Positions 3,205 through 63,633 of a stretch of 64,000 nt of DNA are shown piece by piece. Position numbers and translations under genes: made by a program. Each line of letters opens with the position of its first letter. Positions within the stretch are counted from its first letter, which is position 1. The stretch comes from Mycobacteriales bacterium. GTDB taxonomy: Bacteria; Actinomycetota; Actinomycetes; Mycobacteriales; QHCE01. The stretch is from assembly GCA_038260095.1 (NCBI GenBank), contig JBBSOC010000002.1:14411-78410 (forward strand), in the 5' to 3' direction. The notes beneath the pieces are model-generated. The model ran no database searches and was not told the origin of the DNA. It saw only the letters and a list, made by a program, of their open reading frames with translations.

Positions 3205-3280
3205 TGGAGCCGCCTGTCGGAATCGAACCGACGACCTGCTCATTACGAATGAGCTGCTCTGCCGACTGAGCTAAGGCGGC
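3205..3280 (-). tRNA. tRNA-Thr (anticodon CGU), CCA encoded
   Basis: The reverse complement is gccgccttagctcagtcggcagagcagctcattcgtaatgagcaggtcgtcggttcgattccgacaggcggctcca. The acceptor stem is GCCGCCT/AGGCGGC, the anticodon loop is ttCGTaa, and the T-arm is GGTTCGATTCC. Confidence 0.9.
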
Positions 3281-3345: not shown

Positions 3346-4515
3346 CTACCCTTCATGCAGTGTGAGCATCATCGCCTCCACCGCGATCCGCGGCTTGACA
3401 TTTTCGGCGATCGCGTCGCGACAGGCCAGCACCGCGTCGATCCGCCGCACGATCGACTCCGCCGACCAGCGCGCCGCGGCGGCCTGAGAAACCTCAGCGA
3501 CATCGGGATGCACCAATTCGCTTCCCGCGCCAACGCACACCATCAACACATCACGGTAAAAGGCTGCCAAGTCCACCAACGCGCGATCCAAGCAGTCTCG
3601 GCGGGTGCGCGTAGCGCGCGACTTCTGTTTTCGTGCGAGCTCTTTTTGCGCGGCAGAAGCCCCCCGTGCAGCTGCCTGTGAGCCCTTACCGGAGCCGCCA
3701 GCACCCAGTGCCCGGGTAAGCTGCTCGGACTCGTATTCATCCGATTCGCCGATGAGCGCGCTGGCCTGAGCATCAGTTTGTTTAATCAGCTCATCGGCCG
3801 CGGCAAAACATGCGCCCACACCAGACAAGGAACGAGGCAGCCCTAAAACCGCGGCACGATGCTGCTGGGCCGCGGCGTCTACAGCAAGCCGACGCGCCCG
3901 TCCTACATGGCCTTGCGCCGCCGCGGCCGCCCACTGCGCCGTTCGCGGCGACACCCCGTCTCGCCGCACCAATACACTGGCCACCGCATCCGAGGATGGC
4001 GAGCGCAACATCACTAGGCGGCATCGCGAGCGCAATGTCACACTCACATCCTCTGGATGGATAGAAGGGGCGCACAGCAAAAATATTGTGCGCGCGGCGG
4101 GTTCTTCCACGGCTTTCAGTAGGGCATTCGCCGCGGCCTCGGTGAGCCGGTCGGCATCTTCGATCAACAGAATTTGCCATCTGCCGACCGTGGGCGAACT
4201 TGCTGCGCGCAACACTAGCGCCCGCATGTCATCCACACCGATGGTCAGGCCTTCCGGTATCACGCGGCGCACATCGGCATGGCTGCCCGCCAACGTTGTA
4301 TGGCACGCGTGGCACGCACCGCAACCGCCCTGTTCACATTGCAGTGCCGCGGCGAACGCCAGCGCCGCCACCGAACGACCAGAACCGGCTGGACCAGTGA
4401 ACAACCACGCATGAGTCATGGCCGCATTGGCGGCTCCGGTTGAGGAACGCCGTGCCGCGGCCTGCAGCATGACCAACGCGTCCTGTTGACCGACAAGCGC
4501 CTCAAATACACTCAC
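3346..4515 (-). CDS. holB: DNA polymerase III subunit delta'
   Basis: 389 aa with HAWLFTGPAGSGRSVAALAFAAALQC and a Cys-rich zinc module (CGACHACH), followed by SRC-like RSRC. The position next to tmk is typical of holB. Confidence 0.85.
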   Translation of the reverse strand: MSVFEALVGQQDALVMLQAAARRSSTGAANAAMTHAWLFTGPAGSGRSVAALAFAAALQCEQGGCGACHACHTTLAGSHADVRRVIPEGLTIGVDDMRALVLRAASSPTVGRWQILLIEDADRLTEAAANALLKAVEEPAARTIFLLCAPSIHPEDVSVTLRSRCRLVMLRSPSSDAVASVLVRRDGVSPRTAQWAAAAAQGHVGRARRLAVDAAAQQHRAAVLGLPRSLSGVGACFAAADELIKQTDAQASALIGESDEYESEQLTRALGAGGSGKGSQAAARGASAAQKELARKQKSRATRTRRDCLDRALVDLAAFYRDVLMVCVGAGSELVHPDVAEVSQAAAARWSAESIVRRIDAVLACRDAIAENVKPRIAVEAMMLTLHEG

Positions 4516-13908: not shown

Positions 13909-14280
13909 CTACTGTGTAGAGCTCGGCCGACCTGCGTCGCCGAGTGCAACGTCGATGGCGTCTTCTACCGAGGAAGCGATGGTGAACACTCGTTCCAAAC
14001 CGGTGATACGAAAAATTTTCACAATGCGCTCTTGCGTACAGACCAGCGCGAGGCTGCCGTTAGCGGCCTTCACCCGTTTGAGCGTGCCTACCAACACGCC
14101 AAGCCCGGTTGAATCTAGAAAATCCACATCTCGCATGTCCACTACCAGATGACGGTCCCCCGCATCCACAAGATCGACCAGCTTGACTCGAAGCTGCGGC
14201 GCGGTGTAGACATCGATCTCTCCCGCCACCGATACCACCGTATGGTCGTCAACCGAACGTGTGGTGATCGTGAGTTCCAT
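13909..14280 (-). CDS. STAS-domain anti-sigma-factor antagonist (RsfB/SpoIIAA-like)
   Basis: 123 aa, including [20 protein letters not shown] and [18 protein letters not shown] (the conserved DSTG phospho-serine region). Confidence 0.8.
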
Positions 14281-14464
14281 TAAGATCCTCCATACGGTAG
14301 TAGTGCGATAGCAAGTGGCACCACATAGCGTGTAACTACGTTGCCCATTGTTGCCGATCTAACCACTAGTGTCGTGCATTGTGAGCTGGCGCCGCACCGG
14401 ACATGCAGCTAGTGCGACTTAAGTGCGCCATCGACAACGCTATTCACGCGGTCTCTTACTCGGT

Positions 14465-14574
14465 GTGCACGATAAAAATTTTTGCACAAGTTCTCTTAAC
14501 TTGGCAAAACACGCTGCCACTGACCTGGTTGCTTCATCGACGATGGGTGATGGCCGTAGCTTGCAATCGTGCAC
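14465..14574. repeat. structured intergenic repeat with terminal inverted repeats, copy A (MITE/REP/MIRU-like)
   Basis: The ends are gtgcacgat (14465-14473) and atcgtgcac (14566-14574). The block 14465-14509 is the exact reverse complement of 38880-38924 (45 nt). Weaker homology extends to about 14453-14589. Confidence 0.8.
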
Positions 14575-14611
14575 CATGTCGTTAGCCCAAGGCGTGAGTA
14601 GCGAACGGCTG

Positions 14612-14971
14612 TCAGTCTTCCACCGGTCCAGCTCTGGCTGTTGCTACCGATGAGCGCGGCAGCTTTAATCGCAGGTTTGTTGCGGCAACCTGCACTGAAA
14701 CGACAGCGTCGAGACCGTCCAGGCGACAACTGAGTAGCGTTGCATGATTGGCCAGGGCTACACTGCGAGCAGCTCGACAGGCCCGGCCCTGATCAACCAA
14801 ACTGCGTTGAGCGGCGGCAACCGCAGCTAAGTCCGCGACGTTGCTCGCCCGATGGACTGCGAGCATATAGGAACCAGCGGTAGCAATCGTCGCGGCGATC
14901 AACACGATAGCTGTACCCAGCGCCATGACCATTACCGATGCGCTGCCAGCGTCACGCCCTCGGCTACTCAT
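14612..14971 (-). CDS. Rv3654c-type TadE-like pilus protein
   Basis: 119 aa with an N-terminal hydrophobic segment (GSASVMVMALGTAIVLIAATIA). It is the last gene of the Tad-like operon and overlaps the upstream gene by 4 nt. Confidence 0.6.
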   Translation of the reverse strand: MSSRGRDAGSASVMVMALGTAIVLIAATIATAGSYMLAVHRASNVADLAAVAAAQRSLVDQGRACRAARSVALANHATLLSCRLDGLDAVVSVQVAATNLRLKLPRSSVATARAGPVED

Positions 14972-32475: not shown

Positions 32476-32549
<74 letters not shown>

Positions 32550-38221: not shown

Positions 38222-38782
38222 ATGGTCATCTTAGGTCTGTGCGGAAGCCTTCGGCAGGGCTCCTACAACCGGCGGCTACTCAAAGTGGCTGAAGCAAAGC
38301 TGCCCGTGGGTGAGACTCTCGATATCTTCGAGGGTCTCACCCAGATCCCACCGTATAACGCGGACAATGTGGCACCCCAAGCCGTGAAGGCGCTGCGTGA
38401 CGCGATCATCGCAGCCGACGCGGTCTTGATTGCCACCCCGGAGTACAACTCCTCCGTTCCTGGACAACTCAAGAATGTCCTGGATTGGGCATCACGGCCC
38501 TTCCCGGACAACTCGCTGCGCAACAAGCCGGTAGCGGTGATAGGTGCCTCTACAGGCTTGTTTGGCGCGGTGTGGGCACAGGCCGAACTGCGCAAAATAC
38601 TCACTACTATCGGAGCGGATGTAGTCGAGGGAGAGCTCCCCGTTGGCCAAGCTCACGATGCCTTCAACGAGGATGGAGACCTGGCCGATCCCGACCTAGC
38701 TTCAGCGCTGAGCGACCTCATCAACCAGCTGTTGCATAAAGTACCTGTCAAAGCCGACGCAGCTGCAGCTGCTCGTAGCTGA
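38222..38782 (+). CDS. NAD(P)H-dependent FMN reductase
   Basis: 186 aa: LGLCGSLRQGSYNRRLL...ATPEYNSSVPGQLKNVLDWASRP (FMN_red family). Confidence 0.8.
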   Translation: MVILGLCGSLRQGSYNRRLLKVAEAKLPVGETLDIFEGLTQIPPYNADNVAPQAVKALRDAIIAADAVLIATPEYNSSVPGQLKNVLDWASRPFPDNSLRNKPVAVIGASTGLFGAVWAQAELRKILTTIGADVVEGELPVGQAHDAFNEDGDLADPDLASALSDLINQLLHKVPVKADAAAAARS

Positions 38783-38816
38783 CGTGAAGATTCCGAACCG
38801 CGAGCGCTTACGGCAT

Positions 38817-38925
38817 GGTGCACGATTGCAAGTTACTGCCATCATCGTCGATGAAACGACCAGATCAGCGGCAGCGCGTTTTTGCCAAGTTAAGAGAACT
38901 TGTGCAAAAATTTTTATCGTGCACC
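38817..38925. repeat. structured intergenic repeat with terminal inverted repeats, copy B (inverted relative to copy A)
   Basis: The ends are ggtgcacgat (38817-38826) and atcgtgcacc (38916-38925). The block 38880-38924 is the exact reverse complement of 14465-14509. Homology extends to about 38803-38937. Confidence 0.8.
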
Positions 38926-38931
38926 ACCTCG

Positions 38932-39327
38932 TTAATCAATCGAAAAATGCGGATTATGAATCACACCCAGCGGACTTCCCGACGGGGTGCGCACCACCGC
39001 GACGCGGATGCCGCCCCCAACGTCTTTGGCCGCTGTGTGTTCGGTAGCACCGTCGGTAAGTAGCTGGGTCACAGCGGCGTCCACATCCGCTACGCCCCAA
39101 TACGTGATGGGACCGTCCTCGGGTAAGCCGTTGGGGTCGAGCGCAAGCTCATATCCGGCGACATTGAAGCCCACGTAGAAAGGCTCGTCGAAATACGGTT
39201 CCTGTCCAAGCACTTGCGTCCACCAACGCTTGGCTATCTCCAGGTCAGGTGCCGGGTAAATTACGCTCCGCAAGCCCAAAAAAGCCGCTGCTCCACCTGT
39301 CATAGGCACAGCCTGCCATAAGAACAA
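38932..39327 (-). CDS. VOC/glyoxalase-family protein
   Basis: About 125-131 aa: LRSVIYPAPDLEIAKRWWTQVLGQEPYFDEPFYVGFNVAGYELALDP...GVIHNPHF. Confidence 0.65.
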   Translation of the reverse strand: MFLWQAVPMTGGAAAFLGLRSVIYPAPDLEIAKRWWTQVLGQEPYFDEPFYVGFNVAGYELALDPNGLPEDGPITYWGVADVDAAVTQLLTDGATEHTAAKDVGGGIRVAVVRTPSGSPLGVIHNPHFSID

Positions 39328-39468
39328 CTGGCCCGGTGCCTAGTGTCGTGTAATCGATATCGTCGTTCGTCTGCTGGCGCTCAGGCGGATTTTGATCTTT
39401 TGGTAGCGTGATGGGGCAGTGTGGGGTGGAGACTGACGGTGCATCTGGACTGACTTCCCTGTTCACGA

Positions 39469-41295
39469 ATGCCGGCCCACCACCTCACACACATTGTTGA
39501 GGCTTACGGTAGCTACGTGCTGATTAGCGCCAACTTTGTACGAAGCGCGGCCTACGCCGTTCGATGTGTGCTCGCCGAACGCAACTCGAAGCTGGCCCTT
39601 GACTACGCCGGCTACCTCATCGCAGCACAACGGGACATAGAGCGCAGGCTTGGCGTCGCTATGCGTCACGAATCGGTAGCGATCACCGAACTCAGACAGC
39701 GTGCCCAACTCCAGCTGGCTGACTGCGTAGCCAACCATGCACTCGCGCTCCTCGGTGCACGCCACCGCGAGATCGCGCTGCGGCGGCAGGCCGCACATCG
39801 CGGCATCACCACGCTGATCGAGTGGGCTCAGCAGCGCAACGATCCGACGCAGAGCATGCTGGCGCTGTTTGAACAATGGATCATCAACGGCCATCCACTG
39901 CATCCGGCCGCAAAAGTCCGGTTAGGCATGAGCCCCGTCGAAGTTCTAGCGACGTGCCCGGAATGGGGCAACACTGTCGAGCTCCGCGTTGTGGCATTGC
40001 ATCACACTGCCGCGCAGGAGTACGGCAGCGCTATAACGCGATCACCCGCGCAACAGCGACCGTTGACCAACCTACTGTTGCGCGAACACCCGCAACTGCG
40101 AGCTGCCGTTGTTGCCGAGTGCGGGGCCCAACAAAGTTTCCAAGACAGCGTTACGCTCCTACCGGTGCATCCTTGGCAGGCCGACCATGTGTTGCCGGGG
40201 CGCTTCGGTCGCGAACTCAATGACGGCACGCTACGGTTCCTACCGGTGCACATTCCAGCGCGGCCGTTGGTGTCCTATCGGACCGTCATCCCGTTGGCCA
40301 CGCCGACCGCGCCTCATCCGAGCCATCTCAAGACCGCGTTGAGCGTTCAACTCACCAACGCACTGCGGGGTGTCTCACCGTCCGCCGCCCACAACGGGCC
40401 GCAGGTCTCACGGCTACTCGAGGAGATCCTGCGCCGCGAGCACCATTTCGGCGGTCGCTTAGAGGTACTGGCCGAACCAGCGGCAGCACACTTTCAGTCA
40501 GCTGAACCGCAGACAGCAACCAACGCACAGGCCTTGCAGCGTGCTAGCTCCGAGCTGGCGGCGCTAGCACGGAGCAATCCCGAGCTCGACCTTGGCGAGG
40601 GTGAGCTGCTACTTCCCGCCGGTGCGTTCACCGCGCGCTCGCCGCTGTCGAACCAGCCAGTTCTGGCAGAGCTGCTCGACACCCTGTGTGCCGCAAACCC
40701 GAACGCGGTTGTGCTCAGCAACCGCGCAGATGCGGCCAGGTACTTCACTTACTGCTATGCCAACGTCTGCGTTCCACCACTCCTGACGCTGCTCACTCGC
40801 TACGGTGTGGCGCTAGAAGCACACGGAGAGAACATGCTGCTGGTAATCCGGGCTGGAGAACCGCAGCGCTGCGTTGTACGCGATTTTGGCGGCGTGCGAA
40901 TTCATTCCCAGCGGCTGGCCGAACAGCAGCTACACATACAGCTATTGGCCGGCAGCGTGATCGCCACCAGCGACGACCACGAACTGCGCCATAAGCTGTA
41001 TTTCGCACTGTTCGTCAACGAACTCAGTCAACTGATTACCTGCCTATCTAGGCTTTCCGGGCTGTCTATCGCGCGGCTATGGCAGCCCTTTCGTGCCGCG
41101 GCTACACGCACCTTCGATGAGCTCGCGGCCGAACCGCGGACCCGGCGCGCCGCTCAGGAAGATGCCCGGGCGTTGCTGGAACAACCATGGCCATACAAGG
41201 CCATGCTCTCGATGTGGCTGCGCGGCGACGTCACCGATTACAGCTACCTGCCTACCCATAATCCGTTTGCCGTCACCTCAAGGGGGAACGCGTGA
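39469..41295 (+). CDS. IucA/IucC-family NRPS-independent siderophore (NIS) synthetase 1
   Basis: 608 aa with EQWIINGHPLHPAAKVRLGMS, LLPVHPWQADHVL and the C-terminal EAHGENMLLV...RDFGGVRI. Confidence 0.85.
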   Translation: MPAHHLTHIVEAYGSYVLISANFVRSAAYAVRCVLAERNSKLALDYAGYLIAAQRDIERRLGVAMRHESVAITELRQRAQLQLADCVANHALALLGARHREIALRRQAAHRGITTLIEWAQQRNDPTQSMLALFEQWIINGHPLHPAAKVRLGMSPVEVLATCPEWGNTVELRVVALHHTAAQEYGSAITRSPAQQRPLTNLLLREHPQLRAAVVAECGAQQSFQDSVTLLPVHPWQADHVLPGRFGRELNDGTLRFLPVHIPARPLVSYRTVIPLATPTAPHPSHLKTALSVQLTNALRGVSPSAAHNGPQVSRLLEEILRREHHFGGRLEVLAEPAAAHFQSAEPQTATNAQALQRASSELAALARSNPELDLGEGELLLPAGAFTARSPLSNQPVLAELLDTLCAANPNAVVLSNRADAARYFTYCYANVCVPPLLTLLTRYGVALEAHGENMLLVIRAGEPQRCVVRDFGGVRIHSQRLAEQQLHIQLLAGSVIATSDDHELRHKLYFALFVNELSQLITCLSRLSGLSIARLWQPFRAAATRTFDELAAEPRTRRAAQEDARALLEQPWPYKAMLSMWLRGDVTDYSYLPTHNPFAVTSRGNA

Positions 41296-63559: not shown

Positions 63560-63633
63560 GCGGGTGTAGTTCAATGGCAGAACATCAGCTTCCCAAGCTG
63601 ATAGTGCGAGTTCGATTCTCGTCACCCGCTCCA
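63560..63633 (+). tRNA. tRNA-Gly (anticodon CCC), CCA encoded
   Basis: gcgggtgtagttcaatggcagaacatcagcttcccaagctgatagtgcgagttcgattctcgtcacccgctcca. The acceptor stem is GCGGGTG/CACCCGC and the anticodon loop is ttCCCaa. Confidence 0.9.

Follow-up and report, generated by a model that had tools for sequence, protein, structure and literature searches.

The window, meaning the whole 64-kb stretch of DNA analysed here (G+C ~60%), carries two copies of a short repeat, A and B, each located between genes. Copy A sits within the 331-nt spacer separating a TadE-like pilus gene from a STAS anti-sigma-antagonist gene, 178 nt upstream of the latter, and copy B has an FMN reductase gene on one side and a convergent glyoxalase-family gene on the other. 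The window also encodes an H+-pyrophosphatase that is 99% identical to its homologue in a Mycobacteriales-labelled metagenome-assembled genome (MAG) and ~80% identical to those of Cryptosporangium species, which identifies the source of the DNA as an actinomycete that has not been cultured. The features at the copy A locus are as follows.

13909-14280, - strand: STAS anti-sigma-antagonist gene, on one side of copy A
14456-14458, + strand: left TTA beside copy A; putative target-site duplication, read from the sequence
14459-14581, + strand: body of copy A, probable MITE, 123 bp; nhmmer with the family profile, E=4e-40; boundaries from the family alignment
14459-14473, + strand: left terminal inverted repeat, CTCGGT-GTGCACGAT; family consensus CGAGGTGGTGCACGAT
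14474-14478, + strand: A5 tract directly before hairpin 1
14479-14509, + strand: internal hairpin 1, T5-GCACAAGTT-CTCTT-AACTTGGC-A4; predicted fold, consensus structure
14507 to 14478, - strand: promoter-like match TTGCCA-18-AAAAAT within hairpin 1, from a promoter scan
14513-14560, + strand: internal hairpin 2; predicted from the fold and the consensus structure
14566-14581, + strand: right terminal inverted repeat, ATCGTGCACCATGTCG; its minus strand fits the end motif CGASNTSGTGCACGRTW
14582-14584, + strand: right TTA beside copy A, followed by G; putative target-site duplication
14612-14971, - strand: TadE-like pilus gene, on the other side of copy A

The corresponding features at the copy B locus are listed below.

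38222-38782, + strand: FMN reductase gene, on one side of copy B
38808-38810, - strand: right TAA beside copy B, followed by G
38811-38931, - strand: body of copy B, probable MITE, 121 bp; nhmmer E=5e-46
38811-38826, - strand: right terminal inverted repeat, ATCGTGCACCATGCCG
38916-38931, - strand: left terminal inverted repeat, CGAGGTGGTGCACGAT
38932-38934, - strand: left TAA beside copy B, doubling as the stop codon of the glyoxalase-family gene
38932-39327, - strand: glyoxalase-family gene, convergent, on the other side of copy B

Alignment of the element bodies revealed that the two copies are reverse complements with 87% identity, that positions 14465-14509 are the exact reverse complement of 38880-38924 (45 nt), and that a 4-nt and a 1-nt indel separate the copies. 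Together with the gene map, these results confirmed an earlier, sequence-only reading of this DNA, which had described two intergenic, reverse-complementary segments at these places with a 45-nt perfect block and indels of +4 and -1 nt. The unit of about 110 bp proposed there was too short, the actual unit being 121-123 bp. Its 10-bp termini, GGTGCACGAT...ATCGTGCACC, are exact in copy B alone, copy A reading TGTGCACGAT with 9 perfect bp, and the true length of the inverted termini is ~16 bp, with imperfect pairing. The direct trinucleotides that flank the copies (TTA for copy A, TAA for copy B) were absent from that reading. In a scan of the window that tolerated up to three mismatches, a 29-nt and a 19-nt sub-pattern of the element each occurred exactly twice, compared with 0.00 and 0.02 occurrences expected from shuffled sequences.

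Copy A is decayed, having lost 1 nt from its left inverted repeat and gained 4 nt in hairpin 2, the part of the family with the most variation. Copy B is close to the family consensus and shares 95% identity with one copy from a sister species. Short-read contigs with identical flanking genes, obtained from two sequencing runs, terminated inside each of the two copies, which is explained by the repetitive nature of the element, given that de Bruijn assemblies end at repeats.

Family members and their dispersal

Scanning one genome per species with a pattern made of both ends and TTTTGC recovered six copies, distributed over five contigs, from a single MAG that carries the label Acidimicrobiales and comes from an Antarctic sample (QHCE01), as well as one match in a Streptomyces genome (L010). 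Another match, in a Sedimentisphaerales MAG (L007), was discarded as an apparent chance match, its similarity being limited to the scan pattern itself. A family profile built from eight clear copies then uncovered a seventh QHCE01 copy, 1.8 kb from another one, and gave no spurious match in the 677 kb searched, roughly half of which consisted of unrelated metagenome contigs. The QHCE01 MAG represents a sister species of the window organism, based on an FMN reductase that is 92% identical at the protein level and on 87-91% identity of the DNA near shared genes. Apart from the element, the QHCE01 loci share no DNA with the window, indicating that the MAG copies occupy unrelated places, and the genes near them encode an MFS transporter, a methyltransferase, an AbiEii toxin, a UbiA prenyltransferase, a RibD_C protein, and a GNAT fragment. 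A search of relatives for further copies, as the sequence-only reading had recommended, has thus yielded at least seven in the sister-species MAG, in addition to the two in the window. The copy number is low: the entire MAG holds six exact-pattern copies, a modest figure for a MITE.

Every copy found in the profile search was a single unit. MIRU elements lie within operons as tandem arrays of direct repeats, each 40-100 bp long and joined head to tail, and this candidate was rejected because Tandem Repeats Finder detected nothing at either site; the REP/MIRU-like option raised earlier found no tandem units to stand on. Integron attC sites, which form same-orientation arrays separating single cassettes beside an integrase, were likewise rejected as judged by arrangement, the two window copies being separated by 24 kb, oppositely oriented, and located between housekeeping genes.

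BLAST comparison of the element with plasmid and phage collections gave no match, and neither the conserved left-end 22-mer in JGI metagenomes nor a 21-mer in viral contigs was found. When the three open frames of the element were compared with a set of 5.8 billion proteins, the one match came from the QHCE01 MAG, and one database protein has a 39-residue tail that is encoded by the element. A protein-coding reading was rejected: three of six reading frames run through the consensus without a stop, but indels between copies (4 nt and 1 nt in copy A, 1 nt each in L006 and L012) break them and leave no common reading frame. The element is therefore small and non-coding (bodies of 121-123 bp, compared with less than ~300 bp for MITEs). 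MITEs are non-coding remnants of DNA transposons that have kept the ends, plus palindromic filler.

Ends, flanking trinucleotides and insertion polymorphism

In the family alignment, homology among the copies starts and stops sharply at TWA/CGAGGTGGTGCACGAT...ATCGTGCACCATGTCG/TWA, with the alignment edges reading TWA/CGAGG...GTCG/TWA. The two terminal sequences pair with each other through a perfect core of 9-10 bp within a full, imperfect length of ~16 bp, and the repeats are conserved in all copies. Target-site duplications, another recommended check, were sought in the flanks, and at each of the seven informative loci the two sides carried the same trinucleotide (exact permutation probability of the concordance 1/21, n=7 loci), with TTA/TTA at five (copy A with its ortholog, L008, two L009 copies, and L011) and TAA/TAA at two (copy B and L012). 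Outside these seven are L005, with a degraded right flank, and L006, with a truncated right end. The two TAA copies are not mutual closest relatives, since L012 is 95% identical to L006, whose left flank is TTA, so that the flank pattern is not inherited subfamily sequence. Moreover, G invariably follows the right repeat and C most often precedes the left one, so that the target looks like (C)TWA(G).

The TWA repeats probably represent a 3-bp target-site duplication. This reading is preferred over a 2-bp TA duplication with one terminal base owned by the element, because one element structure then explains all copies. Virtual excision fits a TTA (3-bp) and a TA (2-bp) duplication alike, with the same predicted empty site; terminal inverted repeats and a target-site duplication were thus both found, with the 2-bp and 3-bp lengths not strictly separable.

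The flanks also bear on the idea that the copies are REPs or REPINs spread by a RAYT (an IS200/IS605-like Y1 transposase), or an IS200/IS605-derived element inserting 3' of a TTAC-like site. The copies are indeed palindromic and intergenic, and most have a left flank of TTAC, resembling the TTAC-like target of IS608. REPs and REPINs, however, are palindromic units of 20-40 nt that lack a target duplication and depend on a Y1 (RAYT) transposase, whereas the present unit is 121-123 bp long with flanking direct repeats. To our knowledge, REPs, REPINs, and IS200/IS605 derivatives do not have terminal inverted repeats plus a target duplication, and here the same trinucleotide stands on both sides at seven of seven loci. 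Furthermore, TAAC left flanks also occur (copy B and L012), no Y1 transposase adjoins any copy, and the ends agree with those of an IS encoding a DDE transposase (see below), making this explanation scarcely probable.

Presence and absence of the copies varied among relatives. An ortholog of copy A stands at the corresponding position in two sister-species assemblies (L017 and L018), and no copy was found upstream of the STAS gene in L019 and L020, whose H+-pyrophosphatases are 90-91% identical. In the relatives without the element, the spacer was too diverged to align, and a different, invariant motif was present upstream of the STAS gene. Copy B occurs in L025, a 96%-identical contig, and is absent in L021-L024 (sister species), where the IucA/IucC gene starts 5 nt after the FMN reductase gene; at this place the window has 750 additional nt (38767-39516), comprising copy B and the glyoxalase gene. 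An exact empty site was found for neither window copy, the A locus being unalignable and the B locus lying inside the 750-nt indel, and the search for one via the MFS transporter beside a MAG copy returned only paralogs of 31-39% identity. Being near the consensus and lineage-specific, copy B is the younger of the two; copy A is older than the species split and decaying.

The upstream region of the STAS gene is also the ground for regarding the repeat as a non-mobile protein-binding or regulatory site (an operator or a nucleoid-protein site, with GTGCAC palindromes and A5T5) duplicated at two promoters, whether through chance or through selection. The position of copy A upstream of an anti-sigma-antagonist gene and its sigma-70-like match TTGCCA-18-AAAAAT, which is on the strand leading out of the left end and aims at that gene, would suit such a role. 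Copy B, however, is placed where two genes converge and no promoter is available to regulate, and the relatives that lack the element keep their own invariant motif upstream of the STAS gene. The genes neighbouring the copies are functionally unrelated, and one copy interrupts a gene (L011). A duplicated regulatory site is thus exceedingly improbable.

The interrupted gene provides the clearest test that the copies are insertions. In the MAG, the element at L011 interrupts a fragment of a GNAT acetyltransferase gene, and removal of the element plus one TTA gives ...SIANRRLYERLGY..., joining ...FTLFTGHLSIA to NRRLYERLGYVEV... and restoring the C-terminal motif typical of GNAT proteins. Upon this virtual excision, the Pfam Acetyltransf_1 score rose from 33.7 bits (positions 57-98 of 116) to 46.8 bits (57-116 of 116). 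With both TTA retained it was 42.9 bits, and frame-shifting parses failed to recover the match.

Predicted folding of the element

The predicted fold consists of a closing stem enclosing two internal hairpins, instead of the one long hairpin envisaged from the sequence. Compared with shuffled sequences, copy B folded better (z -3.5 and -4.6) and copy A did not (z -1.4 and -0.6). A structured RNA module, carried by the transcripts of upstream genes and working via the stem and the two hairpins as a small RNA, a terminator, or a stabiliser of the 3'-UTR, would account for the strong fold of copy B, and both window copies are entered from the same end by their upstream gene (TadE-like and FMN reductase, respectively), with a T5 run following hairpin 1 on that strand. 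The poor fold of copy A already speaks against such a module, as do the database comparisons. Rfam models at gathering thresholds matched only three tRNAs in the whole window, and at E<=10 the element region gave a single 13.5-bit match to a 21-nt viral pseudoknot model (E=8.2, chance-level). Among ten copies, none of the 36 predicted consensus pairs showed a compensatory change, with a covariation term of +0.08 kcal/mol, and a terminator scan detected no intrinsic terminator. In addition, the ten copies occur in both orientations relative to neighbouring genes, including one inside a coding sequence and one abutting a start codon, which speaks against the earlier proposal of a 3'-UTR or sRNA module. 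Copy A and its ortholog are 83% identical, where the intergenic DNA around them reaches 80-85% and the genes on either side 88-91%, implying that copy A diverges like the surrounding spacer and behaves neutrally. The palindromic build of a MITE accounts for the fold without selection, and an RNA function is very unlikely.

Common ends with an IS5-family transposon and comparison with known elements

The Streptomyces match (L010) has both termini in common with the window family, plus GATAARAATTTTTGCA beside the left repeat, and the family profile matched it end to end (E=1.5e-4). Related elements of ~115-130 bp with the same ends were found on Streptomyces linear plasmids. A search with the 37-nt left end as query led to a 1,046-bp IS in Streptomyces sp. 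NBC_00015, with the following location.

NZ_CP108307.1, 79305-80350 (L110 2507-3552): Streptomyces plasmid IS

This IS is bounded by 26-bp perfect inverted repeats, CGACCTCGTGCACGGTAGGCCGTGGC, and contains one ORF of 311 aa with HTH_Tnp_4 and DDE_Tnp_4/DDE_Tnp_1 domains, whose best NCBIfam matches are IS5-family models, under their cut-offs. Copies of the IS are present on at least 20 plasmids. A 17-nt degenerate end motif, CGASNTSGTGCACGRTW, occurred 34 times in 679 kb, all 34 at element ends, and the left end of the window element agrees with an L113-type IS end at 14 of the 17 motif positions. The ends of the family are thus homologous to those of an IS with a DDE transposase, as expected for the IS5/PHIS type. 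Bacterial relatives of Harbinger are classed in the IS5 family.

The flanks of the Streptomyces IS mostly read C-TAA...TTA-G and not as a 3-bp direct repeat. One IS copy is located at the end of an IS630 element, of which uninterrupted copies read ...GGACAC-TAG, so that the most fitting account of the event is a duplication of TA at CTAG, the IS itself having A and T as its putative terminal bases. Both groups would accordingly share a TA-centred duplication of 2-3 bp, TWA for the MITE and TA at CTAG for the IS. A difference in duplication length between the two lineages is plausible, as duplications of 0, 2, or 3 bp have been reported among Harbinger relatives (PMC12730594); alternatively, the length may have been mis-read in the MITE family or in the Streptomyces IS. 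The combination of matching ends and a DDE transposase was found in Streptomyces only, and no transposase related to the Streptomyces one was detected in the window or in the lineage loci examined. An IS112-like transposase beside the Streptomyces locus L014 was considered as a partner and rejected, its ends (GGGCTGTCCCG...) being unrelated to the element ends.

Taken together, the repeat is very probably a MITE moved in trans by a transposase of the IS5 family. Of the roles proposed earlier, the MITE is the one that held up, on the dispersed copies, the terminal inverted repeats, the TWA flanks, the presence/absence variation, the gene mended by virtual excision, and the ends held in common with a transposase-encoding Streptomyces IS. 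An IS5/PIF-Harbinger (PHIS) DDE transposase, encoded elsewhere or formerly present, would bind the ~16-bp repeats CGAGGTGGTGCACGAT, excise or copy the element, and insert it at short A/T-containing (C)TWA(G) targets, the identical TTA or TAA seen on both sides being the presumed 3-bp target duplication. In a genome of ~60% G+C, TWA targets would mostly be stop codons and spacers, which would explain the position of the copies at gene ends. The TTA beside one MAG copy is the stop codon of the AbiEii toxin gene, and another copy abuts the first ATG of the MFS gene. This mechanism requires no cellular function, and any effects on neighbouring genes, through start or stop codons or the promoter-like site, would be incidental. 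Which transposase mobilises the family in the window lineage, like the present mobility of any copy, is something that we infer.

A broader and rather doubtful reading is that the 1.05-kb IS belongs together with the window element and the Streptomyces elements of ~115-130 bp in one unnamed IS5/PHIS subgroup across distant Actinomycetota, in which related ends may be combined with a 2-bp duplication at CTAG or a 3-bp duplication at CTWAG according to lineage. Under it, some copies might also have been co-opted for start codons, stop codons, or a promoter, with the hairpin 1 loop flipping. If it were true, the two bacterial lineages would supply a natural pair in which to examine how the cut stagger of a Harbinger-type transposase is set.

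The MITE interpretation explains the two intergenic repeats as well as the contig breaks in short-read assemblies, adds a MITE family to the Actinomycetota, and connects this family with a type of transposase. The element is a marker of recent insertions and deletions, with copy B at the edge of a gene gain of 750 nt; it can mislead gene callers, as in the database protein with the 39-residue tail, and it may serve as a strain-typing marker for an uncultured, apparently Antarctic or desert-soil lineage. It raises no new biological question, being useful for annotation and unsurprising to a specialist. No description of the window family was found in Rfam, in the plasmid and phage collections, or in the open-access literature, and on that comparison the repeat is newly seen as a MITE family of a well-known element kind. 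A 2024 review of prokaryotic MITEs lists no actinobacterial MITE family (PMC10969869).

In several respects the window family resembles Correia elements, RUP, and ERIC/IRU, namely in its size, non-coding nature, inverted repeats, A/T duplication, gene-end positions, and hairpin. Correia elements (Neisseria), RUP (Streptococcus pneumoniae), and ERIC/IRU (enterobacteria) are non-coding elements of 100-150 bp with terminal inverted repeats and a short A/T duplication, which are intergenic at gene ends, form hairpins, and can supply promoters or change gene ends. They are tied to IS630 or other transposases, have TA duplications, and reach tens to hundreds of copies, whereas the window family, as compared by description, has IS5/PHIS-type ends, TWA flanks, and ~10 copies per genome. 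Tourist/mPing elements (PIF-Harbinger) are similar to it as non-autonomous derivatives of a DDE_Tnp_4-type transposon with 3-bp TTA/TAA duplications and an insertion preference for gene edges, and 3-bp duplications are characteristic of canonical Harbinger elements (PMC2213677, PMC12730594). Tourist/mPing elements differ in that they are eukaryotic, require a second, Myb-like protein, and have no sequence in common with the window family.

The ~1.05-kb IS5-family IS of Streptomyces resembles the window family in its CGASNTSGTGCACGRTW termini and its TA-centred targets bounded by C...G. It differs in having its own 311-aa transposase, 26-bp perfect repeats, and C-TAA...TTA-G flanks, and in being found in a class-level lineage different from that of the window organism. 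With 28.6% protein identity to the IS112-like element beside L014, it is a distant relative of IS112. The short Streptomyces element L010 forms a bridge between the Streptomyces elements and the window family.

Two forms of hairpin 1 at the copy A locus

Comparison of the first internal hairpin of the MITE (hairpin 1) across copies revealed two forms, namely GCACAAGTT-CTCTT-AACTTGGC (form one) and GCCAAGTT-AGGAG-AACTTGGC (form two), the second of which is the first with its stem-loop inverted. The sites compared were as follows.

Window 14484-14505, hairpin 1 of copy A
Window 38884-38905, hairpin 1 of copy B
L006 4228-4248, hairpin 1 of an element in the sister species (MAG QHCE01)
L012, hairpin 1 of a further element of the same MAG
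L017 ~2635-2660, hairpin 1 of the positional ortholog of copy A in a sister-species assembly

The form in copy A of the window differs from that in its L017 ortholog, indicating that a flip, or gene conversion, occurred at a fixed locus. Moreover, the L017 ortholog (2558-2687) shares 97% identity with its same-species paralog in L012 (7776-7905), but only 83% with copy A (14459-14581), an identity pattern suggestive of gene conversion among copies or of re-insertion at the same TTA.

Surroundings of the two window copies

Whole-window Rfam analysis at gathering thresholds identified three tRNA genes and no other matches. These and the other features considered here are listed below.

3208-3280 (-), tRNA gene (Rfam)
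32476-32549 (+), tRNA gene (Rfam)
63560-63630 (+), tRNA gene (Rfam)
14356-14372, 17-nt motif, minus strand reading ACACTAGTGGTTAGATC
38767-39516, 750-nt segment spanning copy B of the MITE, the glyoxalase-family gene at 38932-39327 (-) and the opening codons of the IucA/IucC ORF

The 17-nt motif lies ~75-90 nt upstream of the start codon of the STAS anti-sigma-antagonist gene and was unchanged across the window and four relatives (L017 and L018 of the sister species, and the more distant L019 and L020), with the remaining spacer unalignable in two of those relatives. The motif is independent of the MITE and probably serves the STAS, anti-sigma kinase and H+-pyrophosphatase gene string as its native promoter or operator. 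On the copy B side, the sister species lacked the 750-nt segment, and its IucA/IucC gene begins 5 nt after the FMN reductase gene. This difference is a gene gain or loss on a small scale, and the MITE lies near one edge of the segment.

Element effects on reading frames and genes

Three of the six reading frames of the family consensus (window 14456-14585) are open over its full length, so flanking ORFs can run through the element and gain about 40 extra residues; the antisense frame starts at an ATG in the right repeat and ends at a stop made by the left TTA. In MAG QHCE01, the element at L011 5706-5826 (contig QHCE01000043.1) splits a GNAT acetyltransferase fragment, and its antisense strand supplies the last 39 residues of P0001, a protein listed as hypothetical in the database; this tail is an artefact of annotation for which the MITE is responsible. 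The L006 copy (4204-4320) lacks the final ~10 nt of its right end, and the ORF of a 449-aa MFS transporter takes its first ATG from the element itself (in CACCATG), suggesting that this copy may now provide the start codon and 5' leader of the gene. Furthermore, two same-orientation copies in L009 (1124-1245 and 2918-3039; 98% identical, 1.8 kb apart) enclose a gene with a RibD_C domain and a 210-aa ORF lacking annotation, a composite-like arrangement that might be mobile as one unit.

Streptomyces elements beside an IS112-like end

At three Streptomyces loci (L010 1024-1050; L014 2616-2640; L016), the short element sharing the end motif of the family is followed by its TAA and, immediately beyond it, by the initial ~20-25 nt of the left terminus (GGGCTGTCCCGTAAGTGAT) of an IS112-like element from the IS5 family; in L014 a transposase gene is still joined to this terminus. 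Evidently, the TAA adjoining the short element was used as a target by a second IS5-family element.
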